A stretch of DNA of 64,000 bases from Spirochaetota bacterium (GTDB taxonomy: Bacteria; Spirochaetota; UBA12135; COTS27), in NCBI GenBank assembly GCA_013426755.1, contig AP019861.1, positions 1,254,270 through 1,318,269 on the forward strand, in the 5' to 3' direction. Positions 3,533 through 31,176 of the stretch are shown here, in pieces. A model generated the notes under the pieces. It saw nothing but the letters and a program-made list of their open reading frames with translations. It searched no databases and was not told the origin of the DNA. The translations under genes and the position numbers were made by a program. Position 1 is the stretch's first letter. Every line of letters starts with the position of its first letter.

Positions 3533-6500
3533 TCAATTACAAGCAGCAGCAGGGTTTGCCTGGCGGTTAGAACAGACCACATTTCGTAGACGCGGGTAAG
3601 CAGCCGCTTGGAATTCCCAGATCATAGCGTCATCCCAGTTTCCATAAATAGCTTCGCCATTAATAATTGTCCCTTTAACAGACTGCAGCTCGGAGCCTGT
3701 AAGTCCTCTTATGTTAGCAGTAATGAGTTCTGTCTGCTCACTAGAAGCTTCTCTATCAGACCCGACTGCTTTAGCAGTAGCAACTGCCCCTTTTACAGTA
3801 AAAGTGGTTTCTGTATTGTAGTAAGAGTCTGTTATACCTTGACCGTCAGGACTGACTAAATTTCCTGGCGCGTGCATGAAAGCATTATACCCTATGAACA
3901 AACCGCCTGCTACTGTCGCTATAACAGTGCTGCGTGTGTAGGAATTGACAACAGTACTGCTAGAAAAATTAAATCCAACTAGACCGCCTACGAGTTGTTC
4001 GCCTGTAACATTACCTGTTGCGTAGGAGTCAGTAATAGACGAGGATTCCCTGTTCCATCCGACCAGGCCGCCAATTGATTGAAACCCAGAGGCATCTCCT
4101 GTTGCGTAAGACTCACTAATGCTAGCACCATCGTAATTGACGCCAACGAGTCCGCCTACATTCCCACTATTAGCATTTGTTCCCGCTGTTGCTGATATGG
4201 CCATGAGTCCTGTTACAGTCCCTGTTGCATAAGATTTTGCGATAGTACTGCCATCATTATATCCGACTAAGCCGCCGACAAGAGAATTTCCTTCTACATG
4301 ACCCGTTGCATAGGAATTGGTAACAGTAGAATTATGAATATTTCGTCCAACTAAGCCGCCTGCGTTAGCATTTGCTGAATTAGAAATAAACCTAGTCACA
4401 TTTCCTGTGGCGTAGGAATTGATAATAGTAGAGTTATTGGTATTTTGACCGACTAGACCACCAATAGTGTGAAACCCGGTTACAGTCCCTCCTGCATGGG
4501 AATCTCGAATAGTCACATGTCCATAATTATTTCCAACCAGGCCACCTCCATTGTACTCAGTTGAGGTGACAGTGGTCATAGCAGAAGAGTTTGTAACCAT
4601 TACGTTAGAAAAAGTTTCTCCGATCAAACCACCTACATCTTCAAAACCAAGAACAGTTCCCGCTGCGCGAGAATTAGTCACTGTTCCGCCATGAACTCTT
4701 CCAACCAGTGTCCCTACATTAGTAAGGCCTAGGATATCGACGTTCGTTAAAATACAATCTTTAATGGTAGCCTCTCTGACGGAACCTAAGAGTCCTACGC
4801 TATTGATAGTTCTATGGATATAGAGATTTGAGATTGTGTTGGCTGCGCAGTCAAATGTCCCTGTGAAAGGGCTTTCTTCTAATCCGATGATAGGGAAGCC
4901 TTCTCTAATAGCGCTCCCGTCCCAGGGCAAACCTACTGAGCCGAGGTCAATGTCCGTAGTAATCCGATAATGCCTACTTCCATAAACAGTATTACTTGTA
5001 TTGACGAGATAGGAGACGAGTTCTAGTTCAGGGGCATTATCTATGCGGTAAGGATCAGATTCAGTACCAGTACCTGAGCCAGCAGGGAAGCTTTCACATG
5101 GCGGGAATTGCAAATTGATCGTGAAGCTAGCTGTGATCTGCCCGGTGGCAGTTTCTACGGTGACTAGCTGCGGCAAAACAAAATTCACTTCACCACCACT
5201 AGGTGCATGTCCCTCTCTGTGATAATAGCGTGGGAGCGACTGAATGCTTCCCGCTGAAACAACACTTCCTGTGCTAGCCATGACAGGAGTTATCGTTGGC
5301 GTAGCGAGGAGGGTACATGGCTCGGAGATTTCAATTGAACCTCCATTGCCAATTGTTACAGGGCTACCTGCAATGTTGGCGCCAGTGACCATGAGTTCAA
5401 CTCCTGTTGGATTTATTAACTCAGCAAGGTCTACAATAATGACGTCATAATTTTTAGTATTGGTGCTCTCACCAGTACTAGGGAATGGGTCTTCAGAGAT
5501 TGTGATAGTACCTGCTTTAACATTATTGAGTGCTCGTGTTCCCAAATCGTCTGGGTCTGTTAACATATCATCACCACTTAGCGAGAAACCGGTAGGAAGT
5601 GTGCCGCTACCTCTTGTGAGAACAACCTCTCCGTTAGGAACATTGGTAAGGGTCCCCGTAATTCTAATATATCTTCCATCAAATCCTAGTGTAGCCGCCA
5701 CAGCGTTATAGGTCACTGATTGAAAATAACTGTTAAACCTAGCCAATGTGAACCAGTCTGCAATAGGCGCTCCTGCTACGTGTGTTTTAAGGGTATAGGC
5801 TTCGGCACTTCCTCCGTCAAAAGCGACCATTACCGTATTCGTAAAATTTTCAGGCGAGATAAGCGCACTTGCTGTGAGGGGAATACTTGTGGGTGTGGTT
5901 GTGATGCCTTGTGATTGGTCGATGGCGATTGTCCACGTGGGCGGTGTTCCTGTTGAGATGTTCGTCAATCCTGTGATGAGCAGTGTTTTTAGTGTCTGGT
6001 CTGAGCTATCGGCACTTACTTTGAAATTTGGATTGCTGGTTTTAAGAACGCTATTACTGGCGTCAATGTGGGAGACGAGTCTAAATAAGATATGTTGCAG
6101 CAATACAATATCAGCAATCGTATACGTTTGACTGTTGTCAGGATTGGCTGTTTCACGAATGGTGATTGTATTTGCTGTGAGCGAAGCGCTTGTGATGGTG
6201 GCTGTATCAAGACCTGCGCCGTCTGGATCGGGAAGAGTGATGGTCTCTTGAGTGGCTGAGAACCCCGTAGGTAGCGACTGAATAGCAATTGATCCCGCTC
6301 CGTTTATTAGATTAGTGAGTCCTGTGAATGTGAGGGTCCCTCCTGTGAGCGTTACCGTAGCTGATGCACTACCTAAGGTAGCGGAAATATAGGTACTTAC
6401 GCTACTTGTGGTGATCCAATCACTTACGAGCGCCCCTGTTACTTGTGTTTTGAGGGTATAGGCTTCGGCACTTCCTCCGTCAAAAGCGACCATTACCGTA

Positions 6501-8224
6501 TTCGTGAAATTTTCAGGCGAGATGAGCGCACTTGCTGTGAGGGGAATACTTGTGGGTGTGGTTGTGATGCCTTGTGATTGGTCGATGGCGATTGTCCACG
6601 TGGGCGGTGTTCCTGTTGAGATGTTCGTCAGTCCTGAGATGAGCAGTGTTTTTAGTGTCTGGTCTGAGCTATCGGCACTTACTTTGAAATTTGGATTGCT
6701 GGTTTTAAGAACGCTATTACTAGTGTCAATGTGGGAAACAAGTCTAAATAGGATATGCTGCAGCAATACAATATCAGCAATGGTATACGTTTGACTGTTA
6801 TCAGGATTGGCTGTTTCACGAATGGTGATTGTATTTGCTGTGAGCGAAGCGCTTGTGATGGTGGCTGTATCAAGACCTACGCCGTCTGGATCGGGAAGAG
6901 TGATAGTCTCTTGAGTGGCTGAGAACCCCGTAGGTAACGACTGAATAGCAATTGAGCCCGATCCGTTCATTAGATTAGTGAGTCCTGTGAATGTGAGGGT
7001 CCCTCCTGTGAGCGTTATTGTAGCAGTGGTGCTACCGAATGTAGCGGAAACATAGGTACTTACGCTAGTTGTGGTGATCCAATCACTTACGGGCGCCCCT
7101 GTTACTTGTGTTTTGAGGGTATAGGCTTCGGCACTTCCTCCGTCAAAAGCGACCATTACCGTATTCGTGAAATTTTCAGGCGAGATGAGCGCACTTGCTG
7201 TGAGGGGAATACTTGTGGGTGTGGTTGTGATGCCTTGTGATTGGTCGATGGCGATTGTCCACGTGGGCGGTGTTCCTGTTGAGATGTTCGTCAGTCCTGA
7301 GATGAGCAGTGTTTTTTGCGTCTGGTCTGAGCTGTCAATATTGACATTGAAGTTTGGATTGCTGGTTTTAAGAACGCTATTACTGGTATCGATATGGGAA
7401 ATCAGGCGTATAAGGTTATCTGGTAGAAGTTCAATGTCAGCAATCGTATACGTTTGACTGTTATCAGGATTGGCTGTTTCACGAATGGTGATTGTATTTG
7501 CTGTGAGCGAAGCGCTTGTGATAGTGGCTGCGGTAGTACTTGCTCCGTCTGGATCGGGAAGAGTGATGGTCTCTTGAGTGGCTGAGAACCCCGTAGGTAG
7601 CGACTGGATAGCAATTGATCCCGCTGTGTCCCTTAGATTGGTAAGTCCTGTGAAGGTAAGGGTATTTTCTGTGAGCGTTACCGTAGCTGACGTACTACCT
7701 AAGGTAGCAGAAATATAGGTACTTACGCTAGTTGCGGTGATCCAATCACTTACACTTGCGGCGTCGACGTAGGCGTTTAGGGTATAAATAACTGGACTGG
7801 CTGCTTCGGAGGTGACGGAGAGGGTTTCTGTGATCATTTCAGCAGAAATAACCGTTGTCGGTGTGAATGTAAGCTGTGTGGGTGTGGTTGTGAAACCTTG
7901 GTTTTGTGGAATGTCGATAGTCCACGTGGGTGCGGTTCCTGTGGCGGCATTTTTCAATCCAGAGACACGCAATGTAGTGAGCGTAGCATCGGTGGCATCG
8001 GCTTCAATGGTGAGTTCTGAATGAGTATTTTGAATGCTAGAAACCAGTTGTTCGAGCAAGTTAGTTGTTTCAGGTGGTGTTGTAGAGGGCTCTGTCCCGG
8101 TACAATTTGCAATGAAACCCAATACAAACATTCCCAGCACTGTTCGTGTGAGAACTGTTCGTGATTTTTTAATCCATTGTGGGCACAATTGACTTTTTGT
8201 TTTATAAGAATCATTTGAAAACAT
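3533..8224 (-). CDS. Giant GLUG-motif surface lipoprotein with four tandem ~221-aa modules (family member 2)
   Basis: 1563-aa ORF with a hydrophobic leader and a lipobox-like FIANC. Four consecutive ~221-aa modules follow (..ISGLTNISTGTPPTWTIAIDQSQG..AYTLKTQV..SDWIT..LTFTGLTNL..ITLPDPDG..ETANPDNSQTYTIADI..), three of them near-identical. Then come the lead-in (DPYRIDN...DIDL...FTGTFDCAANTISNLYI) and GLUG units. The tail is VVCSNRQANPAAACN. Confidence 0.8.
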   Translation of the reverse strand: MFSNDSYKTKSQLCPQWIKKSRTVLTRTVLGMFVLGFIANCTGTEPSTTPPETTNLLEQLVSSIQNTHSELTIEADATDATLTTLRVSGLKNAATGTAPTWTIDIPQNQGFTTTPTQLTFTPTTVISAEMITETLSVTSEAASPVIYTLNAYVDAASVSDWITATSVSTYISATLGSTSATVTLTENTLTFTGLTNLRDTAGSIAIQSLPTGFSATQETITLPDPDGASTTAATITSASLTANTITIRETANPDNSQTYTIADIELLPDNLIRLISHIDTSNSVLKTSNPNFNVNIDSSDQTQKTLLISGLTNISTGTPPTWTIAIDQSQGITTTPTSIPLTASALISPENFTNTVMVAFDGGSAEAYTLKTQVTGAPVSDWITTTSVSTYVSATFGSTTATITLTGGTLTFTGLTNLMNGSGSIAIQSLPTGFSATQETITLPDPDGVGLDTATITSASLTANTITIRETANPDNSQTYTIADIVLLQHILFRLVSHIDTSNSVLKTSNPNFKVSADSSDQTLKTLLISGLTNISTGTPPTWTIAIDQSQGITTTPTSIPLTASALISPENFTNTVMVAFDGGSAEAYTLKTQVTGALVSDWITTSSVSTYISATLGSASATVTLTGGTLTFTGLTNLINGAGSIAIQSLPTGFSATQETITLPDPDGAGLDTATITSASLTANTITIRETANPDNSQTYTIADIVLLQHILFRLVSHIDASNSVLKTSNPNFKVSADSSDQTLKTLLITGLTNISTGTPPTWTIAIDQSQGITTTPTSIPLTASALISPENFTNTVMVAFDGGSAEAYTLKTHVAGAPIADWFTLARFNSYFQSVTYNAVAATLGFDGRYIRITGTLTNVPNGEVVLTRGSGTLPTGFSLSGDDMLTDPDDLGTRALNNVKAGTITISEDPFPSTGESTNTKNYDVIIVDLAELINPTGVELMVTGANIAGSPVTIGNGGSIEISEPCTLLATPTITPVMASTGSVVSAGSIQSLPRYYHREGHAPSGGEVNFVLPQLVTVETATGQITASFTINLQFPPCESFPAGSGTGTESDPYRIDNAPELELVSYLVNTSNTVYGSRHYRITTDIDLGSVGLPWDGSAIREGFPIIGLEESPFTGTFDCAANTISNLYIHRTINSVGLLGSVREATIKDCILTNVDILGLTNVGTLVGRVHGGTVTNSRAAGTVLGFEDVGGLIGETFSNVMVTNSSAMTTVTSTEYNGGGLVGNNYGHVTIRDSHAGGTVTGFHTIGGLVGQNTNNSTIINSYATGNVTRFISNSANANAGGLVGRNIHNSTVTNSYATGHVEGNSLVGGLVGYNDGSTIAKSYATGTVTGLMAISATAGTNANSGNVGGLVGVNYDGASISESYATGDASGFQSIGGLVGWNRESSSITDSYATGNVTGEQLVGGLVGFNFSSSTVVNSYTRSTVIATVAGGLFIGYNAFMHAPGNLVSPDGQGITDSYYNTETTFTVKGAVATAKAVGSDREASSEQTELITANIRGLTGSELQSVKGTIINGEAIYGNWDDAMIWEFQAAAYPRLRNVVCSNRQANPAAACN
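5770..8050. repeat. Coding tandem repeat, period 663 bp (221 aa), about 3.5 copies
   Basis: The same ~150-nt string (gcgaccattaccgtattcgt.aaattttcaggcgagat.agcgcacttgctgtgagggg...) recurs at 5823, 6486 and 7149, exactly 663 bp apart. A diverged copy is phased at 7812. The antisense ORFs at 5874, 6504 and 7167 are near-identical shadows of it. Confidence 0.9.
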
Positions 8225-15041: not shown

Positions 15042-18000
15042 TCAATATTTAGTATTAGGTTTATGGTGTAGCATAATTTTAAGTAGATTGGCTTTATAGG
15101 AGAGTTGTTGTGAGAGCAGGGGTGCGTTGGTGGCTAGGGCGTGAAGTTTTTTCTTATCTGAGAGGAGCTGGCGTAATTCTTGGCTGAGCGAATGAATCTC
15201 GGTTGATTGGCAACGGAGAGACCCGTTATGCTGTTCGAAATGGGGTGTGATATCTGAGAAGGCTTTCATGTGAGGTCCGTAAATTGTTGGGGTGCCATGG
15301 AGGGCTGCTTCTAAGAAGTTATGTCCGCCGCTACCACGGACAAATGTATCGCCAATGAGTACAAGGTCTGAACTTTGATAAATGGCTTTAAGAACGCCTA
15401 AGTGTGCGATAATAAGAATTTGTTGCTGCCTAGGTGTGTGCTCTGAATGAGCTATATACTCTGAATGATCCGTATGTTCTGAATGATCTGTATGTTTTGA
15501 ATGATCTGTATGTTTTGAATGATCTGTATGTTTTGAATGATCTATATGTTCTGAATGAGCTGTATGTTCTGAATGAGCTGTATGTTCTGAATGAGCTGTA
15601 TGTTCTGAATGAGCTGTATGTTCTGAATGAGCCGTATGTTCTGAATGATCTGTATGTTTTGAATGAGCTGTATGTTCTGAATGAGCCGTATGTTCTGAAT
15701 GATCTGTATGTTTTGAATGAGCTGTATGTTTTGAATGATCTGTATGTTTTGAATGATCTGTATGTTCTAAATGATTTGTATGTTCTAAATGATCTATATG
15801 TTCTGAATGATCTGTATGTTTTGAATAATCTGTATGTTTTGAATAATCTGTATGTTTTGAATAAGGTATATTTTGCAGCTTCTGTGTGTGTGTTGGCTTA
15901 GAGGGAGGAATACCATTGGTAAGTTCTGTCAAAAAAGCATTCCAATGGGTTTCCATAATTGCAGAATTGCTGTTCTCTGAAATAGTTGTTGAGTTATTTT
16001 CTGAGGCAATTATTGAATTCTTCTCTGAAATGGTTGTTGAATTATTCTTTGAGATAGTTGTTGAATTCTTCTCTGAGATGGTTGCTGAATTCTTCTCTGA
16101 GATGGTTGCTGAATTATTTTCTGAGGCAATTGTTGAATTGTTTTCTGAGAATTTTTTTAATGTGTGTTTATCTAGATAAGAGACTGCAAACTTCTTTCCA
16201 AGTTGCTTGGCTAATTTCAATCCGCGTTCTGGATGACGGGGTACTATGATTAGAAATACTGGGGGCGTTGTTGCGTCTGATTCTATTGTGGCTGAATTTT
16301 CTGTTTCTATTGCAGATGAAATTTTTGTTTTTACTGCGGATGGAGAATTTGACTGCATTGCGGCTGAATTTTCTGTTTCTACTGCAGATGAATTTTTTGT
16401 TTTTACTGCGGATGGAGAATTTGACTGCATTGCGGCTGGAGTTTCTGTTTCTACTGCAGATGAAATTTTTGTTTTTACTGCGGATAGAGAGTCTGACTGC
16501 ATTGCGGCTGGAGTTTCTGTTTCCACTGCAGATGAATTTTTTGTTTTCATTGCAGATGGAGAATTTGACTGCATTGCGGCTGGAATTTCTTTTTTCACTG
16601 CAGATGAATTTTCTGTTTTCACTGCAGATGGAGAATTTGACTGCATTGCGGCTGGAGTTTCTGTTTCCATTGCAGATGAAATTTTTGTTTTCATTGCAGA
16701 TGGAGAATTTGACTGCATTGCGGCTGGAGTTTCTGTTTCCACTGCAGATGAAATTTCTGTTTTTACTGCAGGTGGAATGGTTGAATTTACTGTGGCTGTG
16801 GGCTGGATAAGCATTTCACTTAGGGCTGTGACAATAAGTTGTTCTTCACCTTCATGGGAAGATGCCAATGTGACAATCTGCGGCGTGGTCGTTGTCATGT
16901 GAGCATAATCAATCAAATCACTGAATTTACTTTTACAAAGTCGCTTGATAGGGTAGGGAATGTCTGTAAAAGTTTCATTATTATTTTTTTTGAATTGTTG
17001 TAAGAAACCTTGATTGTATTTTATATTTCCAATTGCTGCAATGATTGGCGTACCAGTAGCAGCCGAATTATTTGAATCAGCAGACGAAGTAGACGACAAT
17101 TTTCGATCAGCAGCCAAATTACTCAAATCAGCAGACGGAGTACTCGAATCAGCAGCCGAATTACTCGAATCAGCAGCCGAAGTAGACGGCAATTTTCGAT
17201 CGGCAGCCGAATTATTCAAATCAGCAGACGAAGTAGACGGCAATTTTCGATCAGCAGACGGAGTACTCGAATCAGTAGCCGAATTACTCGAATCAGCAGA
17301 CGGAGTAGACGGCAATTTGCGATCAGCAGATGAAGTAGGAGTAGAAATAGGAGACAAATTGGGAACAGGAGTGGGAGACAATTTTCGATCAGCAGCCGAA
17401 TTATTCAAATCAGCAGACGGAGTACTCGAATTAGCAGCCGAAGTAGACGGCAATTTGCGATCAGCAGCCAAATTACTCGAATCAGCAGACGGAGTAGACG
17501 GCAATTTTCGATCAGCAGCCAAGTTACTCGAATCAGCAGACGGAGTAGACGGCAATTTTCGATCAGCAGACGGAGTACTCGAATTAGCAGCCGAAGTAGA
17601 CGGCAACTTGGAATCAGCAGATGAAGTAGGAGTAGAAGTAGGAGACAAATTGGGAGTAGGGGAGTATAGTTTTTGTATGATTTTGTGTGTGGTTTCTGAA
17701 CACGTTAAGATGTGGCTTAACCGATGGGTCCATTTGAAGACAGCAGGGAATTTTTGATACCATTTTCCTGCTTTACCTTTGAGTTCGTAATTGACGAGGA
17801 GGCGGTGGTGTCCATTATTTTTGAGTTTTTCTAACAGGACAGGCCACAGATCATTCTCAATCACCACGAATGGCGCCGCAGGTTTCAATGTCTTCACATA
17901 CTTTCCTAGTATAGGAGCAAAATCCAATGGGACATAACAAAAATTAATATTAATATTGTGTTTTATTTTAAGATGTTTTGTTATGGCGGCTGCGCGTTCT

Positions 18001-19703
18001 GCCCCTGTGGAGGATTGGTAAGTGAGCAGGAATTGTGGGATTTCCTTATCCATTGAGTCACTTCTAAATGGGGTAGGAGAGATAGAAGATAAATTTTCAT
18101 TAGCTATTGAATCACTTCGGAGTTGAGGTGAAGACAAGTTTTTACTACCCATTGAGTCATTTCGGGGTGGGGTAGGAGAAGTAGAAGATAAATTTTCATT
18201 AGTCATTGAATCACTTCGGAATTGAGGTGAATACAAGTTTTCACTACCCATTGAATCATTTCTAAATGGAGTAGGAGAAGTAGAAGATAAATTTTCATTA
18301 GCTATTGAATCACTTCGGGGTGGGTTAGGAGAAGTAGAAGATAAATTTTCATTAGTCATTGAATCACTTCGGAGTTGAGGCGAAGACAAGTTTTCACTAC
18401 CCATTGAATCATTTCTAAATGGAGTAGGAGAAGTAGAAGATAAATTTTCATTAGCTATTGAATCACTTCGGAGTTGAGGTGAAGACAAGTTTTCACTACC
18501 CATTGAGTCATTTCGGGGTGGGGTAGGAGAGGTAGAAGATAAATTTTCATTAGCTATTGAATCACTTCGGAGTTGAGGTGAAGACAAATTTTCATTAGCT
18601 ATTGAATCACTTCGGAGTTGAGGTGAAAACAAGTTTTCACTAACTATTGAATCATTTCTAAATGGAGTAGGAGAGGTAGAAGATAAATTTTTATTAGCTA
18701 TTGAATCACTTCGGAGTTGAGGTGAAGACAAGTTTTCACCACCCATTGAATCATTTCTAAATGGAGTAGGGGTAGGAGAAGTAGGAGAAGCAAAATTGTC
18801 ATTTCCTGCTAGAAAGACACGAATTACTTCCGCTACCAAATTCACTTCTCCCGCAGAAATAGCATGAATCCAAGCATCATAACGACCTTTGAATATTTCC
18901 TCCTTAGGAAATCCTGCTTTTTCAAGGTAGTAATTGGTTTTCCTAGAATATTTCTTCTGCCCAGTACTATTATCACGCATCCTAGCATTATCGTGCATCC
19001 TAGTATTATCGTGTATCCTAGTATTATCATGTATCCTAATATTATCATGCTTCCTAGCATTATGACGCATTCTAGCATTATCACAATTGCCTGCATTGAA
19101 TGTAGAGGTCGCACCCATAGTCGCTGTATTGTTGGTACTGGCATGCTCATTGTGAGTACTGGCACGCTCATTATGAGTATCAATGGTGGTCGTATTGCCG
19201 GTACTGGCATGCTCATTGTGAGTATCAATGGTGGTCGTATTGTTAGCATTGGTGTTTACATTGTGAGTATCAATGGTGGTCGTATTGTTAGCATTGGTGT
19301 TTACATTGTGAGTATCAATGGTGGTCGTATTGTTAGCATTGGTGTTTACATTGTGAGTACCAATGGTGGTCGTATTGTTAGTATTGGTGTTCACATTGTG
19401 AGTATCAATGGTGGTCGTATTGTTCGTGCCAGCGGTACGAATTCCGAGTAGAATGCCGAGACCACGGCGATTTAGAGTACTTTTTAGAGTACTCTTTATA
19501 AGATTGCTTATAGTACTCATAGCATTCACTAGGGCATATTTCAATCTGAGGATCATTCCGTATAGACCAAAATAAAACCAAAGTAAGCCCATCGCACATT
19601 GATAGACCCATTCTATAGGGGAAACTTTTTCTAGCTTCATAGCATTTAACAATTGCTTATAGTACTCATAGTATTCACTAGGGCATTTTTTAACCTGATG
19701 CAT
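15042..19703 (-). CDS. waaA: 3-deoxy-D-manno-octulosonic acid (Kdo) transferase WaaA/KdtA carrying six in-frame tandem-repeat insertions
   Basis: All the conserved WaaA blocks I know from E. coli are present in order: WIHAISAGE (cf. HSVSVGE), VVIENDLWP (cf. METELWP), LASSHEGEE (cf. TSTHEGEE), LIIVPRHPER (cf. LVPRHPER) and GGHNFLEAALHGTPTIYGPH (cf. GGHNPLEAAAHAIPVLMGPH). The blocks are separated by six low-complexity repeat tracts. The ORF-track start at 19703 is probably an over-extension. The Met at 19640 (MKLEKVSPIEW..., followed by a TM helix) is the likelier start. Confidence 0.8.
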   Translation of the reverse strand: MHQVKKCPSEYYEYYKQLLNAMKLEKVSPIEWVYQCAMGLLWFYFGLYGMILRLKYALVNAMSTISNLIKSTLKSTLNRRGLGILLGIRTAGTNNTTTIDTHNVNTNTNNTTTIGTHNVNTNANNTTTIDTHNVNTNANNTTTIDTHNVNTNANNTTTIDTHNEHASTGNTTTIDTHNERASTHNEHASTNNTATMGATSTFNAGNCDNARMRHNARKHDNIRIHDNTRIHDNTRMHDNARMRDNSTGQKKYSRKTNYYLEKAGFPKEEIFKGRYDAWIHAISAGEVNLVAEVIRVFLAGNDNFASPTSPTPTPFRNDSMGGENLSSPQLRSDSIANKNLSSTSPTPFRNDSIVSENLFSPQLRSDSIANENLSSPQLRSDSIANENLSSTSPTPPRNDSMGSENLSSPQLRSDSIANENLSSTSPTPFRNDSMGSENLSSPQLRSDSMTNENLSSTSPNPPRSDSIANENLSSTSPTPFRNDSMGSENLYSPQFRSDSMTNENLSSTSPTPPRNDSMGSKNLSSPQLRSDSIANENLSSISPTPFRSDSMDKEIPQFLLTYQSSTGAERAAAITKHLKIKHNININFCYVPLDFAPILGKYVKTLKPAAPFVVIENDLWPVLLEKLKNNGHHRLLVNYELKGKAGKWYQKFPAVFKWTHRLSHILTCSETTHKIIQKLYSPTPNLSPTSTPTSSADSKLPSTSAANSSTPSADRKLPSTPSADSSNLAADRKLPSTPSADSSNLAADRKLPSTSAANSSTPSADLNNSAADRKLSPTPVPNLSPISTPTSSADRKLPSTPSADSSNSATDSSTPSADRKLPSTSSADLNNSAADRKLPSTSAADSSNSAADSSTPSADLSNLAADRKLSSTSSADSNNSAATGTPIIAAIGNIKYNQGFLQQFKKNNNETFTDIPYPIKRLCKSKFSDLIDYAHMTTTTPQIVTLASSHEGEEQLIVTALSEMLIQPTATVNSTIPPAVKTEISSAVETETPAAMQSNSPSAMKTKISSAMETETPAAMQSNSPSAVKTENSSAVKKEIPAAMQSNSPSAMKTKNSSAVETETPAAMQSDSLSAVKTKISSAVETETPAAMQSNSPSAVKTKNSSAVETENSAAMQSNSPSAVKTKISSAIETENSATIESDATTPPVFLIIVPRHPERGLKLAKQLGKKFAVSYLDKHTLKKFSENNSTIASENNSATISEKNSATISEKNSTTISKNNSTTISEKNSIIASENNSTTISENSNSAIMETHWNAFLTELTNGIPPSKPTHTQKLQNIPYSKHTDYSKHTDYSKHTDHSEHIDHLEHTNHLEHTDHSKHTDHSKHTAHSKHTDHSEHTAHSEHTAHSKHTDHSEHTAHSEHTAHSEHTAHSEHTAHSEHTAHSEHIDHSKHTDHSKHTDHSKHTDHSEHTDHSEYIAHSEHTPRQQQILIIAHLGVLKAIYQSSDLVLIGDTFVRGSGGHNFLEAALHGTPTIYGPHMKAFSDITPHFEQHNGSLRCQSTEIHSLSQELRQLLSDKKKLHALATNAPLLSQQLSYKANLLKIMLHHKPNTKY
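15432..15863. repeat. 18-bp coding repeat x24 (His-rich hexapeptide HS[EK]HT[AD]) inside waaA
   Basis: The unit agctgtatgttctgaatg and variants read as 24 consecutive hexapeptides, running from YSKHTD to HSEHTP. The tract lies between the PRHPER block and the GGHNFLEAA block. Confidence 0.95.
15957..16152. repeat. 24-bp coding repeat x~8 (SENNSTTI) inside waaA
   Basis: The protein tract is SENNSTIASENNSATISEKNSATISEKNSTTISKNNSTTISEKNSIIASENNSTTISE. Confidence 0.9.
16265..16800. repeat. 72-bp coding repeat x~7 (TETPAAMQSNSPSAVKTKISSAVE) inside waaA
   Basis: A 24-aa unit is reiterated between the HEGEE block and the PRHPER block. The antisense ORFs at 16246 and 16268 are shadows of this array. 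Confidence 0.9.
17045..17665. repeat. Irregular in-frame coding repeats (SADRKLPST / SADSSN units) inside waaA
   Basis: The protein tract STPSADRKLPSTPSADSSNLAADRKLPST... is reiterated with variable unit lengths. Confidence 0.85.
18040..18800. repeat. In-frame coding repeats (SPTPFRNDSMGSENLSSPQLRSDSIANENLSST units) inside waaA
   Basis: About 250 aa of reiterated ~16/33-aa units lie immediately after the WIHAISAGE block. Confidence 0.9.
18955..19430. repeat. Two adjacent coding arrays inside waaA: 18-bp (HDN[TA]R[IM]) x~8 and 45-bp (NNTTTIDTHNVNTNA) x~5
   Basis: The protein tracts are HNARKHDNIRIHDNTRIHDNTRMHDNARMRDN and TNNTTTIDTHNVNTNTNNTTTIGTHNVNTNANNTTTIDTHNVNTNA... They lie between the N-terminal TM helix and the first catalytic block. 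Confidence 0.9.
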
Positions 19704-19818
19704 TCACTAGGGCATATTTTAATCTGAGGATCGTTCCGTATAGACCAAAATAAAACCAAAGCAAGCCCATCACACATTGATAGACCCATTCTATAAGGGA
19801 AACTTTTTCTATCTTCAT
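19690..19818 (-). pseudogene. Tandemly duplicated 5' fragment of waaA (42-codon remnant)
   Basis: Hand translation gives MKIEKVSLIEWVYQCVMGLLWFYFGLYGTILRLKYALVNASG*. This is ~90% identical to the waaA N-terminus starting at 19640 (MKLEKVSPIEWVYQCAMGLLWFYFGLYGMILRLKYALVNAMS...). The duplication period is 178 bp. Confidence 0.7.
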
Positions 19819-19920
19819 AGCATTTTAACAATTGTCTTCTTTTGCTTTAACAATTGCCTTCTCTCATTTTATCATGAAAAGAACCATTCGCTTTCCAGCG
19901 TAGCAATGAATAATTTTGGC

Positions 19921-20320
19921 ATTGATTTCAATTGCAGCTTATAGCGTAGTTAACCAATTGATCTCAATTGTAACTCATAGCACAGTTAACCGATTGATCT
20001 CAATTGTAACTTATTTGTAACTCATAGCGTAGTATAACCGATTGATCTCAATTGTAACTCATAGCGTAGTATAACCGATTGATCTCAATTGTAACTCATA
20101 GCGTAGGATAACCAATTGATCTCAATTGTAACTTATAGCATAGTTAACCGATTGAACTCAATTGTAACTCACAGCGTAGTTAACCGATTGATCTCAATTG
20201 CAGCTCATAGCATAGTTAACCAATTGATCTCAATTGTAACTCATAGCGTAGTTAACCAATTGATCTCAATTGTAGCTCATAGAATATCAATGGCAGCATA
20301 TAGAGTAGTGACTCATTGCT
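19921..20320. repeat. Intergenic minisatellite, 36/37-bp unit x~10
   Basis: The unit is attgatctcaattgtaactcatagcgtagttaacc(g/a). Each unit carries the palindromes CAATTG (often twice) and usually GTTAAC. Confidence 0.95.
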
Positions 20321-20386
20321 TAGGCTAAAACCCATAACCTAACTACTTATGACTCAACTCGAGCATTACTCGAGCTAAGTCATTTG

Positions 20387-21015
20387 TTGCTAAGATTTTA
20401 TCTTTGCTGCTAAGATTATCTTTATTGCTAAGATTATCTTTGCTGATAAGATTAGCTTTGTTGCTAAGATTATCTTTGTTGCTAGGATTATCTTTGCTGC
20501 TAAGATTATCTTTATTGCTAAGATTATCTTTGCTGCTAAGATTAGCTTTGTTGCTAAGATTAGCTTTGTTGCTAAGATTATCTTTGCTGCTAAGATTAGC
20601 TTTGTTGCTAAGATTATCTTTATTGCTAAGATTATCTTTGCTGCTAAGATTAGCTTTGTTGATAAGATTAGCTTTGTTGCTAAGATTATCTTTGCTGCTA
20701 AGATTAGCTTTGTTGCTAAGATTATCTTTATTGCTAAGATTAGCTTTATTGCTAAGATTAGCTTTGTTGCTAAGATTATCTTTGCTGCTAAGATTAGCTT
20801 TATTGCTAAGATTATCTTTGCTGCTAAGATTAGCTTTGTTGCTAAGATTAGCTTTGTTGCTAAGATTATCTTTGCTGCTAAGATTAGCTTTGTTGCTAAG
20901 ATTATCTTTGTTGCTAAGATTATCTTTGCTGCTAAGATTAGCTTTGTTGCTAAGATTAGCTTTGTTGCTAAGATTATCTTTATTGCTAAGATTATCTTTG
21001 TTGCTAGGATTGTTT
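20387..21015. repeat. Intergenic minisatellite, 18-bp unit x~35
   Basis: The units ttgctaagattatctttg and ctgctaagattagctttg alternate over about 630 bp. Confidence 0.95.
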
Positions 21016-21439
21016 CTCTATTATTATTAATCCAGTGATGTCAAAAAACTTTAACCCAATTCATATCAGGTATTCGCAACTCAAGAAACTCATCGTTTCC
21101 TCAGCTCAAAGACCAATCAAGTACCTTAAAAAAATATTATCAATAACAACACTTATTCACATATACGCAAAATGACTTCGTTTCACTCACACGTAAAATA
21201 GCCTTGTTTTACTATACGTAAAATAATTTTTTTCATTCGTGCCATTAAGATAATTGGGTGGTCTTCTGTCAAGTTAAAGCATTTCACGCTCTCAGGCGCC
21301 TAGGGTAAAAGTTTTGCTTTCTCCTACCCATGCTTCACCTTTACATGCATTTAATAAGGTTCCAATTTGTCTTATACCCTTTCATACAACCACTAAACCA
21401 ATGCTATTGAATATTCTTTATCATTCTTTATTATTGTTT

Positions 21440-21790
21440 TTTGACGTTTTTTTAGTTGACTTTTTTTTTGAGTGCTCATCTATTGAGTCAAGCTTTTTAT
21501 TGTTAAAAATCCTTTTCTCAATATCGCAGTTTTTTAGTTGACTTTTTTAAAAAATGTCTAGCCATTGAGACAAGTTTTTTATTGTTAAAAATCCTTTTCT
21601 CAATATTACAGTTTTTTAGTTGACTTTCTTTAAAAGTGTCTAGCTATTGAGTCAAGTTTTTTATTGTCAAAAATCCTTTTATCAATTTTTGTCAATATTA
21701 CGATTTTTTAGTTGACTTTTTTTTTTAAGTGCCTATTCATTGAGTCAAGTTTTCATTGAGTCAAGTTTTTTATTGTTAAGAGTCTCTTAT
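21440..21790. repeat. Intergenic tandem repeat, ~82-bp unit x~4
   Basis: The marker tagttgac recurs at 21453, 21535, 21617 and 21709. The units share gagtcaagttttttattgttaaaaatccttttctcaatat...tttttagttgac. One unit has a 10-bp insertion. Confidence 0.9.
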
Positions 21791-21944
21791 TTGTTTGAAT
21801 TGCTCGCTAATTTTCTAGGTCTACCCATTTTAACTTTCTTTGAATGTCATTAAGGATAGCTCCAATTCCTAAAATTAAGTTGTTCACTGCAGAAAATCTC
21901 TCATTCCCCAACTTCCGATAAGTTCCATTATGTTAACTTTGCAC

Positions 21945-22268
21945 ATCTTTAAATTGTAATGACTCTCACAGATATTGTATTAAATTTTATGTTAGTTTTG
22001 TATCTTTTTTAGCTGTAATCATTCATACAGATATTGTGTTAAATCTTATATTAATTTTGTGTCTTTTTTAGCTGCGATGATTCATACAGATGTTGTGTTA
22101 AATCTTATGTTAGTTTTGTATCTTTTTTAGCTGTGATGATTCATACAGATATTGTTAAATCTTATATTAATTTTGTGTCTTTTTTAGCTGTGATGATTCA
22201 TACAGATATTGTGTTAAATCTTATGTTAATTTTGTGCTTTTTTTAATTGTAATCATATTCATACAGTT
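21945..22268. repeat. Intergenic tandem repeat, 59-bp unit x~5.5
   Basis: The unit is attcatacagatattgtgttaaatcttat.ttaattttgtgtcttttttagctg.gatg. The whole unit is conserved, so there is no spacer-like unique part. Confidence 0.95.
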
Positions 22269-22453
22269 CTAATCTGCTTTTATCATAGTTATAACATTGA
22301 TTAAATACAGTCAATTCGTCACAGTCACTCAATATCATCACCGTTACTAAATACAGTCAACTCATTACACTTCATAGTATAATCAGTAGACTACCAGCGA
22401 CTATTTTTTCATTAAGTAGCCTATTTTTCATTACTAAATATATTTCATGCAAA

Positions 22454-23335
22454 ATGGACAGCAATTATTCTATTTACAATGGTGATTGCCTGGCTTGGTT
22501 TAAAGAATATAAAGAGAATAATATTGATCTTACCTTCTTAGATCCGCCATTCAATCAGAACAAAGAATATCGTTATTTTAATGATAATTTGTCAGAAAAT
22601 GAGTACTGGCAATTTATGTTAACAGCCCTCAAAGAAATATATCGCCTTTCTAAACCAGGTGCAAGTATTTATTTCATGCAGAGAGAAAAAAATACACAAT
22701 TCGTTCTAGAAAGCTTAAAAAACGCCGGCTGGACTTTCCACAACTTAATTATCTGGAAAAAAAAAACTTCTGCCGTCCCGTGTAAAAATAAATTTAGCAA
22801 GTCTTATCAGATTATTGCTTACGCTACCAAAGGAACTAAACCAACTACTTTTAATAAACTTCGTATCTCTCCTCCATTACCCGCCCATTATAAATACGAA
22901 AGAAAAAATGGACTTTATCTAACCGATGTTTGGGATGATATACGAGAACTCACATCAGGATATTTTGCTAGTGAAGAAGCCATTAGAAATAAAGACAATT
23001 CAAGATTTCACAAACAACAAACTCCCATTGCACTTCTACTTCGCATCCTACTCTCTTCATCCAAACGTGGAGACCTAATCCTTGATCCTTTTGCCGGTAC
23101 AGGAACTACCCTAGTCACCGCATTTCAATTAGACCGTAAAAGTATCGGCATAGAGATAGACCCTAAAAATATAGCCTGTATTACCTCAAGATTAAACCAT
23201 ATCTCCAAAGGCGACCGTATCAATAAATATTTAGACGACTATAAATACACTCAAAATTTACATTGTCTTCTTAAAGAAACCACCCCTGTTAAAACAGAAC
23301 CCCACCAACCCCTTTTTCAAAAAACACTCGTTTAA
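22454..23335 (+). CDS. DNA methyltransferase, N6-adenine/N4-cytosine family, beta-class motif order
   Basis: 293-aa ORF. The catalytic motif IV, FLDPPFNQ (DPPY-type), is near the N-terminus. The SAM-binding motif I, ILDPFAGTGTTLVTA, is near the C-terminus. The order IV then I defines the beta group. The region is more AT-rich than the flanking housekeeping genes. Confidence 0.85.
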   Translation: MDSNYSIYNGDCLAWFKEYKENNIDLTFLDPPFNQNKEYRYFNDNLSENEYWQFMLTALKEIYRLSKPGASIYFMQREKNTQFVLESLKNAGWTFHNLIIWKKKTSAVPCKNKFSKSYQIIAYATKGTKPTTFNKLRISPPLPAHYKYERKNGLYLTDVWDDIRELTSGYFASEEAIRNKDNSRFHKQQTPIALLLRILLSSSKRGDLILDPFAGTGTTLVTAFQLDRKSIGIEIDPKNIACITSRLNHISKGDRINKYLDDYKYTQNLHCLLKETTPVKTEPHQPLFQKTLV

Positions 23336-23405
23336 TTCCCAAAAATTTTCCTTTAATCTTCACAAGCTAATTCTCAGCCCTCCTCTTTGAGATTTTATCT
23401 ACGAT

Positions 23406-24272
23406 ATGCCGATTTATTCTATTTATCATTTCTTTAAAGAGGTATTAAAAAATAAAAATTTTCTTTTGACCTTAAAAAAATTAGAAAATTTTCCCTTCAA
23501 TTCTAATTTATTAGCTTGTCAAAACAAAGGACTTTTTCCTGATCTAGCTATTCGTATAAATAAAAATTCAAATAAAGATATAGCTTTATTTAGTGGAGGC
23601 GAATTAATAGAATTAAAAGACAGTAAGAGTTACTCCATCGCTTCTTTTAATTCTACCATTCCAACAGGCAAAAAAGAAATCAATAAAGTTATCACTTCTT
23701 CCAGTAGTACAATAAAAAAACAAATGGAAGCTAACGGTAATAATATTTATTCTTTGCCCGTAAGAGATGTCTTTTATTTAATTAGAGGATTAACAAAAAA
23801 TAATACAAAAGTTTGTCTCGTCCACGGCAGTTTCTTTGAAACACTTCCAATCGATAAATTAATTCAAAATAGTCTCGAACAATCTTTAAATGAACGCCTT
23901 CATGAACTTGATAAGAAATTACCAACAAAATGGAAAAATAAATTTTTGTCTTTGTTTACAAAACAAGAAAATTTCAGCCGTGTTAGAAATATCGAAAAAG
24001 CATCCGTAAAACTTCGTTTTAGAATTATGACCGAAATAAAAGCAGAAGGAAATATCTTAAACTCTAAAACATACCCCGAAATCTTAGACAATACTCTTAA
24101 TTTTATTTTACCTCTCCATCAATCCATCGAAGAGAGTAATATCTTTAAAAAAATGAATTTTGTTTTCACTCAAAATCAATTGAACCAATTCAAAATCTTT
24201 AAAATTAAGCACCTGCTCAACGGTTATTTCCTAGTCTTTCAAACAAGTTTATCAAAAAATCAATCAAAGTAA
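23406..24272 (+). CDS. Putative type II restriction endonuclease (candidate PD-ExK nuclease)
   Basis: 288-aa ORF lying 70 bp downstream of, and co-oriented with, the methyltransferase. It contains LFPD-x(22)-ELK (..GLFPDLAIRINKNSNKDIALFSGGELIELKDSK..), which fits the PD-(D/E)XK spacing. I recognise no other family signature. Confidence 0.5.
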   Translation: MPIYSIYHFFKEVLKNKNFLLTLKKLENFPFNSNLLACQNKGLFPDLAIRINKNSNKDIALFSGGELIELKDSKSYSIASFNSTIPTGKKEINKVITSSSSTIKKQMEANGNNIYSLPVRDVFYLIRGLTKNNTKVCLVHGSFFETLPIDKLIQNSLEQSLNERLHELDKKLPTKWKNKFLSLFTKQENFSRVRNIEKASVKLRFRIMTEIKAEGNILNSKTYPEILDNTLNFILPLHQSIEESNIFKKMNFVFTQNQLNQFKIFKIKHLLNGYFLVFQTSLSKNQSK

Positions 24273-24339
24273 ATTATTTCCAAACTTAATCTCCTCGCCT
24301 TATTACTCCACTCTTCTTACCGGAAGATCAGGTCAATTA

Positions 24340-25185
24340 TTAAAATGCAACGCTTTCTTTTTTAAGTAGTTCTGTAAAATTGATATAATCAACGTCAAAC
24401 TCCTCACAAACATTGGGAATCTTTATCTTCTTTGCCATTGGACCAGATTTAGTTTCTGCTGTAACAACCGTTATTCTCATATCAATAGCTTTAGCAATAA
24501 GCAATCCGTCTGCAGCTAATTCGTCTGAGCCACCCATGCCCATGAAGTCCTGGTTAATTTCTTGAATATCCCTCCTTGATTTTACCTTCTTATCTTTTTT
24601 ATTTATATAATAATCAGCTATCTTAATTATTTCCTTTTTTACATGCTCTGAAACGATTTTACGCGAAGCACTGCTATTATCTAATATCAGTTTCTTTTTT
24701 AGAGGTTTTAATATCGATTCTAGAGATTCTAATATCAGTTTTAGAGATTTTGATATCTGTTCCTTTTCACTCGAAGCACTGACATCATTTAATATTAGTT
24801 CTAGAGATTTTGATATCTGTTCATCCTTTGGTAAAGATTTATGATGTATTAGCGTACTAGCATGATGATTTAATATATTGGTAATTAAGCTTTTTGCTTT
24901 ATCATGTACAGCGTCAATTGTCTGTATTTTCCCAGACTGAATATTTTGCTTAATAATCTTATCAAGAGATCTAAATAATATATTGATAATCGAGCTTTGG
25001 GCTTGATTGTATACAGCGTCAATTGTCTGTATTTTCTCAGACTGAATATTTTGCCTAATAATCTTATCGAGAGATCTAAATACATCATGAGGGTAAAATC
25101 TTTCTAAATTGATAAAACAATTAGCATCTAGTAAATACTTAGACTGAAACGTCTTAATGAATTGAGAAGCAGTTTTCTGTTCCAC
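24340..25185 (-). CDS. DUF4411-type PIN-like nuclease (putative toxin) with internal duplications
   Basis: 281-aa ORF. The N-terminal YLLDANCFINLERFYPHDVF and the C-terminal AADGLLIAKAIDMRITVVTAETKSG...KIPNVCEEFDVDYINFTELL match the two conserved ends of the DUF4411 PIN-like family as I recall it. The middle contains a 35-aa tandem duplication and SKSLxLIL repeats. Confidence 0.65.
   Translation of the reverse strand: MEQKTASQFIKTFQSKYLLDANCFINLERFYPHDVFRSLDKIIRQNIQSEKIQTIDAVYNQAQSSIINILFRSLDKIIKQNIQSGKIQTIDAVHDKAKSLITNILNHHASTLIHHKSLPKDEQISKSLELILNDVSASSEKEQISKSLKLILESLESILKPLKKKLILDNSSASRKIVSEHVKKEIIKIADYYINKKDKKVKSRRDIQEINQDFMGMGGSDELAADGLLIAKAIDMRITVVTAETKSGPMAKKIKIPNVCEEFDVDYINFTELLKKESVAF
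24874..25083. repeat. 105-bp coding tandem duplication (35 aa x2) inside the PIN-like gene
   Basis: acagcgtcaattgtctgtatttt occurs at 24908 and 25013. The protein copies are FRSLDKIIRQNIQSEKIQTIDAVYNQAQSSIINIL and FRSLDKIIKQNIQSGKIQTIDAVHDKAKSLITNIL. Confidence 0.9.
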
Positions 25186-25235
25186 AGTATAGAATACACC
25201 ACTTACAATAAATAAAAAATTATTGTTCTAACCTC

Positions 25236-26789
25236 TTAGATTTTACTTAACATTTTTTCTAATTTCTTAGATTTAAGTTGTTCGTAATCAAGCCCCAATA
25301 ACCGCCGGGTATCCGTATAAAGCATCCTGTTCTCGAAGAACTCATCGATAGCCGCATTTATAAAAGGCCTCCCCCCTAACCTATAAGGCAGCGTAGCCCA
25401 GAAATCGCCACCACCTTTCTGGCTTGTTGTTCTTTCTTTTTTATTAGAGGTCACTTTCCAGCTCCTATTAAAGTCCTCTTTTTCTATCAGGCCGGTAAGA
25501 TAGGCGCGTATAAGAACAACTTGAAAACTAATTTTGTATCTGTTAACTATCTTTTTACAGATCTCTTCATAATCATGACTGTCATGACCACCACTAAAAA
25601 GCTCCCAATCTCTCCTGATGATTTCATCAGGTAGTAAAACTTTTCCAGCAATACGATTACATCGCTTTTCTTGAGAAAAATTCTCTTTTGAGATCGAAGT
25701 GTCTACATCGATCATATCCACTAGTCCAGAATGTCTTAACTGCAGGTGCGCTAGTTCATGGGCAAGCGTAAAAATCTGAGCCTGCTTTGATAGAGCACCA
25801 TTGATAAATATAAGTGGAGCGTGTGTATCGTATAACGCAAAACCACAAAATTCCTCGACATTTAAGGGTCGGCGAGTATTATTCCCCACACAACCATTAC
25901 GCATAACCATAATGTCTCTGATAACAACCGTTTCAATAAGATTTTTGATTTTTTTATCAGAATCCAGATAATCATCTTTTTTATCTAAATCTAAAAATTC
26001 ACGAATATCGTTTGCTATCAGATCATCATCAGCTTCCTTTAAATCCTTATCAAATCCTGCTAATCCACTAAACTTCCTATACCCATTACCAAGTTTATAG
26101 TCGCGATACCATCTCTGCTTACTTCTAGCGTCTCTTATAACATCGAGCAGCGCAGGCGTAGGTGTCCTAATTATTTTATTACCATAAGTTCTAAAATCTG
26201 TAATCGGTAGCTTGATGTCCTCCTCAGTCAGTTTCCTATCAATAAAAAGATAACCGAATCCAATGTGAAATTTCTTTGCTAATCCCTCGAGTTGCTTCCA
26301 AGTAGGCGGAAGCGACCGTTTATTTTCCCAATTTTCATAGTTCTTATGAATCTTATGAAGTTTTTGCTTTAACTCTGACTGCCAGTAGTTCTCTTCTTCA
26401 TTATCATATTTTTTTTGTTGCTCTTTGGTTAAGTAACTCCATTTCTCATAGACCCATCGCTTTCTAGCCCATCGCAGATTATATGTATTGATCCAAAAAA
26501 CAGTTGACTTTATTTTAGACAGTTTCTTTTTGATAAGAAAATAGCCTAGTGCAACATTAAACTTTTCTGCCAATTCCTCGAGTTGGTTTTCAGTAGGAAT
26601 TAACTCGCCCTTTTCCCAATCTTTATACTTCTCATGAAGTTCTGGCTCCAATACGGACTGCCAGTAGGTCTCTTTTTTATTATCATAGTTACCCTTTTTT
26701 GCCTTAACTAAGCACCGCCACCGCATATCAATCCACCGTTCCCTAGCCCACCGCAGATTATCTCTATTAATATAAGTAGTCGTCATCAT
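25236..26789 (-). CDS. ImmA/IrrE-family (COG2856) zinc metallopeptidase with a duplicated N-terminal XRE-like module
   Basis: 517-aa ORF. The HExxH zinc motif lies in FTLAHELAHLQLRH, preceded by the typical DFR...ALLDVIRDAR..QRWYRDY segment. The N-terminus has two ~95-aa copies of a module (NLRWAR.RW ... W...P....QLE.LA.KF....GY.FI..KL) resembling the HTH part of XRE-ImmA fusions. It is upstream of, and co-oriented with, the PIN-like gene (50-bp gap). Confidence 0.75.
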   Translation of the reverse strand: MMTTTYINRDNLRWARERWIDMRWRCLVKAKKGNYDNKKETYWQSVLEPELHEKYKDWEKGELIPTENQLEELAEKFNVALGYFLIKKKLSKIKSTVFWINTYNLRWARKRWVYEKWSYLTKEQQKKYDNEEENYWQSELKQKLHKIHKNYENWENKRSLPPTWKQLEGLAKKFHIGFGYLFIDRKLTEEDIKLPITDFRTYGNKIIRTPTPALLDVIRDARSKQRWYRDYKLGNGYRKFSGLAGFDKDLKEADDDLIANDIREFLDLDKKDDYLDSDKKIKNLIETVVIRDIMVMRNGCVGNNTRRPLNVEEFCGFALYDTHAPLIFINGALSKQAQIFTLAHELAHLQLRHSGLVDMIDVDTSISKENFSQEKRCNRIAGKVLLPDEIIRRDWELFSGGHDSHDYEEICKKIVNRYKISFQVVLIRAYLTGLIEKEDFNRSWKVTSNKKERTTSQKGGGDFWATLPYRLGGRPFINAAIDEFFENRMLYTDTRRLLGLDYEQLKSKKLEKMLSKI

Positions 26790-31033: not shown

Positions 31034-31141
31034 TCTATCATTCTAATTACCATTAAATATCAATTGTTCTTCATCGATACAAAAAGTCTAAATAACACAT
31101 TACAGAACACTTCAACAAACAAAACTTAAACAAACAATTAC

Positions 31142-31176
31142 AGAAACACAGAAACCACCACAGAGTCTGTGTTTCT
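31142..31176 (-). terminator. Putative intrinsic terminator hairpin downstream of the GLUG gene 31229-34564
   Basis: A perfect 10-bp stem pairs agaaacacag (31142-31151) with ctgtgtttct (31167-31176), with a 15-nt loop. On the minus-strand transcript it is followed by a T-rich stretch (gtaattgtttgtttaagttttgtttg). The loop is rather long for a classic terminator. Confidence 0.4.

Follow-up and report, generated by a model that had tools for sequence, protein, structure and literature searches.

An apparently intact and probably functional Kdo transferase gene with six loops expanded by in-frame tandem repeats in the starfish symbiont COTS27

COTS27 is an uncultured subcuticular Spirochaetota symbiont found in crown-of-thorns starfish (Wada et al. 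2020, PMC7444263). In a stretch of 64,000 nucleotides of its chromosome (GCA_013426755.1, contig AP019861.1, positions 1,254,270 to 1,318,269; hereafter the window), one open reading frame (ORF) encodes a relative of WaaA, the Kdo transferase of lipopolysaccharide (LPS) core synthesis, in which 985 of 1553 amino acids (aa), that is 63% of the protein, are made of tandem repeats. Its sequence and the structural models lead us to consider it likely that this waaA is intact and functional, and that in six of its loops tandem duplication in situ, through replication slippage or unequal recombination, has produced the expansions under the filter of selection.

The gene is by domain, fold and conserved residues a member of the WaaA family (GT30), for which Kdo transfer is the predicted activity. 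The Glycos_transf_N domain (PF04413) is recognized in the native protein with an E-value of 5.2e-19 and 68.9 bits against a cut-off of 23.9, covering profile positions 47-166 only. When the repeat tracts are taken out, the remaining core of 568 aa, which was used for homologue search, alignment and modelling, reaches 91.8 bits, with a match that spans the profile from end to end (positions 6-178 of 179). In NCBIfam, the native protein matches only WaaA equivalogs, and a phmmer search of PDB sequences retrieved the Aquifex WaaA 2xci (E 2.8e-11 at the CMP-Kdo-binding end). The initial annotation had recognized a Kdo transferase with all its catalytic blocks in order, and the five motifs are indeed colinear: WIHAISAGE at aa 278-286, ENDLWP at 616-621, SSHEGEE at 948-954, VPRHPER at 1154-1160 and GGHNFLEA... 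at 1459-1478. The core aligns colinearly with 17 canonical WaaA proteins and keeps all 25 columns that are invariant across these 18 sequences, as well as 36 of the 36 columns invariant in its nearest clade. In the phmmer alignment with 2xci, once a 21-residue tag offset is allowed for, G285/E286, E616, N1462 and E1465 pair with Aquifex Gly30/Glu31, Glu98, Asn273 and Glu276. We take these residues, together with Arg212, to be the catalytic or CMP-binding residues of WaaA; the list reportedly goes back to the structure paper that Schmidt et al. published in PNAS in 2012. The arginines of PRHPER are likewise invariant in WaaA alignments.

Arrays were called with Tandem Repeats Finder (TRF), and the insert sites were fixed by aligning the full-length protein to its nearest compact homologues. 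About 1000 codons in six unrelated tracts had been announced from the sequence alone. The measured figure of 985 aa at six sites (aa 93-245, 301-551, 681-883, 969-1144, 1187-1248 and 1282-1421) is close to it, with the refinement that the sites hold seven arrays, site 1 containing two or three repeat tracts. From the N-terminus to the C-terminus, the features are as follows.

15042-19703, minus strand: complete waaA-like ORF, ATG start, 1553 aa, no internal stop; Pfam, NCBIfam and PDB matches all Kdo transferase
19428-19703, minus strand: core block 1 (aa 1-92), hydrophobic helices of the N-terminus, associated with the membrane and aligning with the N-terminal helix of canonical WaaA; long helices at 29-78 in the model
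18969-19427, minus strand: insert site 1 (aa 93-245), Asn/Thr/His-rich, with a 45-bp array, an irregular HNEHAST tract and an 18-bp array (HDNxRM)
19128-19424: TRF array of site 1, 45 bp x5.7
18969-19083: TRF array of site 1, 18 bp x6.4
18804-18968, minus strand: core block 2 (aa 246-300), with WIHAISAGE at 18846-18872 in a strand-to-helix loop, its Gly-Glu aligning with Aquifex Gly30/Glu31
18051-18803, minus strand: insert site 2 (aa 301-551), Ser/Asn/Pro-rich, at a helix-to-strand loop (H131-145 to E153-158)
18050-18781: TRF array of site 2, 99/252 bp
17664-18050, minus strand: core block 3 (aa 552-680), with ENDLWP at 17841-17858, E616 aligning with Aquifex Glu98
17055-17663, minus strand: insert site 3 (aa 681-883), Ser/Ala/Pro-rich, at a helix-to-strand loop (H266-276 to E280-283)
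17058-17620: TRF array of site 3, irregular, periods of 21-93 bp, all multiples of three
16800-17054, minus strand: core block 4 (aa 884-968), with GNIKY and SSHEGEE (16842-16862); confidence score (pLDDT) of 93-94 when modelled with arrays in place
16272-16799, minus strand: insert site 4 (aa 969-1144), Ser/Ala/Thr-rich, at a helix-to-strand loop; modelled as coil, pLDDT 31-42
16276-16776: TRF array of site 4, 72 bp x6.8
16146-16271, minus strand: core block 5 (aa 1145-1186), with VPRHPER at 16224-16244
15960-16145, minus strand: insert site 5 (aa 1187-1248), with units of the type SENNSxTI
15973-16150: TRF array of site 5, 24/72 bp
15861-15959, minus strand: core block 6 (aa 1249-1281), an element of 33 aa between sites 5 and 6 that is free of repeats, specific to the lineage and common to the nearest relative P0175
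15441-15860, minus strand: insert site 6 (aa 1282-1421), 31% His, with units HSEHTA/HSKHTD; modelled as coil, pLDDT 27-43
15442-15862: TRF array of site 6, 18 bp x23.4
15042-15440, minus strand: core block 7 (aa 1422-1553), the CMP-Kdo-binding end, with GGHNFLEA at 15306-15329; N1462 and E1465 stand opposite Aquifex Asn273 and Glu276 in the alignment

At the 5' end of the gene, a tandem duplication of about 180 bp spans the start codon (19518-19831, minus strand). Its upstream copy is a 42-aa ORF (19690-19818, minus strand) that repeats WaaA aa 22-59, the N-terminal membrane helix, and M22, at 19640, may have been the ancestral start codon of waaA. Scans for promoters and terminators in the surroundings of the gene found no enrichment over shuffled sequence.

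A further line of evidence is the reading frame. The 4.66 kb of the ORF, at about 38% G+C, are free of stops and frameshifts, and the repeat periods of all seven waaA arrays are multiples of three (18, 24/72, 72, 21-93, 99-252, 18 and 45 bp). In the window as a whole, this is true of 32 of the 33 arrays inside ORFs versus about 12 of the 38 intergenic arrays, by our own count from the TRF table, one third being expected by chance. The coding frame has no stop in any of the waaA arrays; the other two frames of the coding strand contain 0-12 and 0-48 stops per array, most arrays being hit. The contrast between genic and intergenic periods, together with the fact that only the coding frame is open through all arrays, shows that the waaA reading frame is under selection, as the initial annotation had argued. 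The ORF lacks the marks of a pseudogene: there is no stop in 1553 codons, every array has a period divisible by three, and all invariant residues are present. A phase-variable contingency locus was also rejected, since all TRF periods within the ORF are multiples of three and a change in copy number would thus not switch waaA on or off.

The same contrast bears on the possibility that the arrays were created or inflated by the short-read de Bruijn assembly of a starfish hologenome. The chromosome was assembled with Platanus from Illumina paired-end and mate-pair reads, and 23 gaps remain in genic tandem repeats (PMC7444263); several of the waaA arrays (420-730 bp) probably exceed the read length. 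However, an assembler is blind to reading frame and cannot produce a difference in period between coding and non-coding DNA. The arrays also contain many diagnostic variant units, the 64-kb window holds no N, and the authors of the genome closed gaps by Sanger sequencing and validated the structure with 15-kb mate pairs (PMC7444263). We therefore take the arrays to be biological, their exact lengths being uncertain, and consider an assembly artefact highly improbable. Copy numbers are uncertain because the assembly is built from short reads; errors in them would leave the frame unchanged, as every period is a multiple of three.

The AlphaFold2 (AF2) model of the core (pLDDT 74.7, pTM 0.70) adopts a GT-B fold, and its three best Foldseek matches in PDB are chains of 2xci (E 8e-17 to 2e-16, target-normalised TM-score 0.64-0.66), followed by a match to the WaaA C-terminal domain 4bfc. 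The inserts had been proposed to lie in surface loops. In the core model all six junctions fall in loops, as judged solely from its secondary structure. Helix-to-strand loops hold four of them; of the other two, one lies in the linker that follows the N-terminal membrane helices and one next to the lineage-specific element. The junction of site 1 falls in this linker, which is of low confidence and joins the N-terminal helices to the first Rossmann domain. The substrate cleft of a Rossmann-type domain is bordered by the strand-to-helix loops, and the opposite edge is where the helix-to-strand loops are found. None of the six junctions but all five catalytic motifs are in strand-to-helix loops of the core model, so that the arrays would hang off the back of both Rossmann domains. 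When the contiguous C-terminal domain was modelled with arrays 4-6 in place, the core blocks kept pLDDT values of 76-94 and an unchanged strand order; arrays 4 and 6 were predicted as coil and array 5 as partly helical, with array pLDDT values of 27-45.

The arrays themselves look like products of local duplication. An all-against-all blastn of the waaA arrays, and of these arrays against the rest of the window, found no shared sequence other than between the two adjacent tracts of site 1, which agrees with the independence of the tracts suggested initially. Mobile in-frame elements, similar to Rickettsia palindromic elements (RPEs) or transposable elements of the miniature inverted-repeat type (MITEs), were rejected because no sequence is common to the sites apart from those adjacent tracts and there is no Rfam match. 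An intron, an intein or an RNA element behind the inserts was also rejected, as the tracts are plain tandem repeats without Rfam match. The waaA arrays end in partial units, as expected from duplication in situ rather than from insertion of foreign DNA. The encoded peptides are rich in Ser, Thr, Asn, Pro and His and only 10-33% hydrophobic versus 39% in the core, whereas most alternative frames of the array DNA would be more hydrophobic (fractions up to 0.78). The ratio of nonsynonymous to synonymous differences (pN/pS) between repeat units is 0.45-1.4, which indicates little constraint on the peptide sequence of the arrays.

A phmmer search with the core among 1.84 billion representative proteins found closest matches of only 37-38% identity, and none of the best 150 is a repeat-inflated WaaA, in line with the rarity claimed at the outset. 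Two long WaaA matches, P0180 (866 aa) and P0183 (586 aa), were considered as inflated candidates and turned out to be a fusion of two WaaA proteins and a partial duplication. The nearest clade consists of proteins of 406-533 aa with the common motifs IEHDLWP and LIGDTF..GGHNFLE. In a scan of GTDB, the closest waaA loci were those of Spirochaetota metagenome-assembled genomes (MAGs), with WaaA ORFs of 412-468 aa. The typical length of about 420-440 aa given in the initial annotation thus compares with 406-470 aa measured in relatives. At 63 waaA loci of other genomes (about 13 kb each), the repeat fraction is 0 at the median, 0.3% on average and at most 1.8%, and nothing comparable is present at the six insert sites in any relative examined. 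Compared with canonical WaaA/KdtA (lipid IV(A) Kdo transferase, CAZy GT30; 2XCI), the COTS27 protein has the same domain order, motifs, GT-B fold and N-terminal hydrophobic helix, but it measures 1553 instead of about 410-470 aa, 63% of it being arrays in six loops, and its core is at most 38% identical. We are not aware of any described bacterial enzyme of core metabolism in which minisatellites have expanded at several sites to such an extent. Scans of GTDB and JGI metagenomes with COTS27-specific peptides retrieved neither a second strain nor the COTS27 genome itself. The proteins P0177 and P0178, similar in composition, were considered as a possible second, compact waaA of COTS27; both belong to other assemblies, the view of COTS27 being limited here to the 64-kb window.

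Several observations weigh against an intact, functional waaA expanded by a general process. Proteins near waaA are identical to GenBank BBM89100, BBM89104, BBM89107, BBM89111, BBM89112 and BBM89122. An exact look-up of the waaA ORF among deposited proteins, with nine alternative starts and the nearby and opposite-strand ORFs, returned none, although its neighbours BBM89104 and BBM89107 were present; the ORF is also missing from the exhaustive search of the 1.84 billion representative proteins. It may therefore be unannotated in GenBank or flagged as a pseudogene (candidates BBM89105/89106). The scores fell short of the NCBIfam equivalog cut-offs (NF004385-NF004389; 363-617 bits), the native protein reaching 112 bits at best and the core 162 bits. 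As the assembly is Illumina-only, the lengths of the waaA arrays and the order of their units are uncertain, and the low pLDDT of the arrays is partly due to the lack of homologues in the alignment. Finally, repeats make up 60% of waaA versus 3.3% of the other genes, the pentapeptide-repeat family excluded, and 0% of the genes for FumC, AccA, the glycyl-tRNA synthetase GlyQS and a pyrophosphatase (PPase). As waaA is such an outlier within the window, a purely neutral genome-wide process is insufficient to explain its excess. Possible reasons for this excess are that the helix-to-strand loops of WaaA are long and exposed, that the gene is weakly expressed, or that a sheltered niche has relaxed the selection on LPS.

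Some of these points could also mean that waaA is relaxed or dying: its product would be a relic, or would have lost the ability to transfer Kdo, and would be tolerated thanks to the sheltered subcuticular niche or to a replacement enzyme. Its repeat density equals or tops that of non-coding DNA (48%), its 5' end is duplicated, its core is at most 38% identical to any WaaA and falls under the equivalog cut-offs, and the ORF was not found among deposited proteins. Yet 4.66 kb without stop or frameshift at about 38% G+C, periods divisible by three in seven of seven arrays versus about one third in the neutral DNA of the window, and the retention of all family-invariant residues are hard to reconcile with decay. 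The compact Spirochaetota relatives P0177 (187 bits) and P0175 (169 bits) also fall under the equivalog cut-offs, which shows that the shortfall of the core reflects divergence of the clade rather than the inserts. Moreover, an LPS biosynthesis gene set is reported in COTS27 (PMC7444263). A relaxed or dying waaA is, in our opinion, distinctly unlikely.

The repeat tracts could instead be adaptive and have been positively selected in waaA, as intrinsically disordered segments at the cytoplasmic side of the inner membrane that would bind metal through the His tract, act as spacers or tethers, scaffold LPS enzymes or tune enzyme level. The expansion of six separate loops in a single protein, a tract with 31% histidine, a repeat content of 60% versus 0-12% in the other housekeeping genes of the window, and a pN/pS below 1 (0.45-0.86) in four of the five arrays tested are in favour of such roles. 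In contrast, the arrays are diverse in composition and mutually unrelated, the overall pN/pS is close to 1, with a value of 1.4 for the His-rich array, the non-coding DNA is filled with arrays of the same kinds, and no relative has anything comparable at the insert sites. WaaA acts at the cytoplasmic membrane face, which makes host-facing roles of the tracts implausible. We regard an adaptive origin as unlikely, somewhat less so than a dying gene.

Repeat inflation is not peculiar to waaA: the window is saturated with arrays, and smaller ones are present in other genes. Tandem arrays occupy 19% of the window (15.9% without waaA) and 48% of its non-coding DNA. For the intact, probably functional waaA that we favour, the following course of events can be proposed. 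Tandem duplication by replication slippage or unequal recombination would expand the six WaaA loops in place, and the same repeat-generating process would act throughout the stretch, filling about half of the non-coding DNA and seeding smaller arrays in genes. Selection would then act as a filter: genic arrays would persist if their period is a multiple of three, if they are free of stops in the frame of the gene, if they encode hydrophilic peptides of the disordered type and if the loops that hold them are remote from the catalytic cleft. The peptides encoded by the repeats would mostly be ballast, tolerated at the back of the two Rossmann domains, rather than newly acquired functional domains. 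We infer the enzymatic activity, the slippage mechanism and the neutrality of the peptides from these patterns. A bolder proposal, which we find doubtful though less so than a purely adaptive origin, is that COTS27 represents a bacterial counterpart of Plasmodium-style proteome inflation, caused by unusually active tandem duplication (perhaps through a missing or altered replication or repair function), in which the WaaA arrays would be live, polymorphic in copy number, and would have gained functions such as His-rich metal binding or membrane scaffolding.

Slippage repeats in genes for LPS synthesis bring to mind the contingency loci of Haemophilus, Neisseria and Campylobacter, in which LPS or lipooligosaccharide (LOS) glycosyltransferases are switched on and off through changes of frame in mono- to tetranucleotide repeats whose units are not multiples of three. 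COTS27 waaA differs from them in that all its units are multiples of three. RPEs are another case of repeated bacterial DNA found in frame within unrelated metabolic genes, and their insertions are predicted to be compatible with protein fold and function (PMC10969869). However, RPEs are dispersed mobile elements of about 150 bp that belong to few families and usually occur as one copy per site, whereas each COTS27 site has its own local array. Housekeeping proteins of Plasmodium falciparum, like the COTS27 protein, contain hydrophilic, low-complexity, often repetitive in-frame tracts between structural elements, commonly seen as near-neutral products of slippage (PMC11260460, PMC6310243, PMC3140889). 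Plasmodium is an extremely A+T-rich eukaryote with mainly homopolymer-like runs of Asn or Lys; in contrast, COTS27 is a bacterium at about 39% G+C with diverse units of the minisatellite type (18-252 bp), and the inflation of a single enzyme to 63% repeats is extreme. Ehrlichia ruminantium, a host-associated bacterium with many tandem repeats, has a low coding density and an active process of expansion and contraction at repeats of variable copy number (PMC10710844). There, the process is described as targeted at non-coding regions (PMC10710844), whereas in COTS27 arrays are also found in the loops of an LPS core enzyme. The inflation of enzymes by repeats is thus a known kind of phenomenon, as in Plasmodium, and the multi-site WaaA case is a new bacterial form of it.

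Provided that the protein is produced and active, an LPS core enzyme of a bacterium can carry about 1000 disordered repeat residues in six loops. This would provide a natural map of insertion-tolerant sites of the GT-B fold, all away from the catalytic cleft, and, if the bolder proposal above holds, WaaA would be a natural experiment on how far an active GT-B enzyme can be expanded. The presence of arrays in about half of the non-coding DNA of the window indicates a so far undescribed trait of this symbiont's published genome. The description of this genome (2.68 Mb, 1650 coding sequences) names genic tandem repeats only as assembly gaps (PMC7444263), and neither repeat-inflated enzymes nor waaA are discussed in the paper or its supplements (PMC7444263). 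As selection sorts the arrays by period, multiples of three within genes and any period outside, COTS27 could offer a clean bacterial system for the balance between slippage mutation and selection. A note of caution also follows for annotation: short-read assemblies and profile hidden Markov models can under-call such genes, the native protein covering the Pfam profile only partly and scoring far under the NCBIfam cut-offs.

Among the other features of the window, four gene-free stretches (19704-22453, 34565-36420, 39865-42385 and 50030-51748) consist almost wholly of unrelated arrays with periods of 10-116 bp, mostly not multiples of three. Smaller in-frame arrays are found in other genes. 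A ThiF/MoeB-like protein (58463-59434, minus strand) has a 30-bp x3.7 array (SSPPKSNF...) after its ThiF domain, and a DUF4411 protein (24340-25185, minus strand) has an in-frame 105-bp x2 duplication and a 21-bp array. KsgA (BBM89111; 27012-28160, plus strand) measures 382 aa versus about 250-300 aa in solved homologues, with several non-repetitive low-complexity inserts rich in Ser, Thr, Pro and Gln between its conserved blocks. A family of large GLUG-motif proteins (428-1563 aa; 178-8224, 29747-34564 and 36421-39864, minus strand), probably at the surface or secreted, includes one member with Asn/Thr-rich arrays of 39 and 90 bp, both multiples of three. Five pentapeptide-repeat paralogues (444-1043 aa) are present within 22 kb (42386-45646, minus strand; 52321-57156, plus strand; 62615-63949, minus strand). 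The only array inside an ORF with a period that is not a multiple of three (52336-52378, 17 bp x2.4) lies in the first 20 codons of ORF 52321-53940, and the true start of this ORF is therefore probably downstream.

The glycyl-tRNA synthetase (45649-48885, minus strand) has its alpha and beta chains fused into one polypeptide of 1071-1078 aa. Among non-self proteins, its best relatives are mostly fused enzymes of the Chlamydiae type and only about 34% identical overall, which indicates that the COTS27 lineage is divergent. Its nearest relative, P0050 (MAG GCA_030621685.1), contains two small arrays with periods divisible by three inside GlyQS, which hints that the tendency to form repeats is older than COTS27. 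At 22454-26789, a DNA methylase (N6_N4_Mtase), a hypothetical gene, the DUF4411 (PIN-like) gene and an IrrE/M78 peptidase come in this order; this group, with about 31% G+C, below that of its flanks, looks like a small island of the restriction-modification or toxin-antitoxin type. No tRNA genes and no Rfam families were found in the 64-kb window. The GC skew of the plus strand changes from about +0.2 (6-20 kb) to between -0.2 and -0.4 (21-40 kb), with a flip near 20000-21000 (window 19000-23000), within the stretch upstream of waaA that is devoid of genes and filled with arrays. There is no enrichment of DnaA boxes near the flip. On either side of it most genes lie on the minus strand, so that the flip is not an effect of gene orientation and could correspond to a replication terminus or origin, or to the boundary of an inversion.

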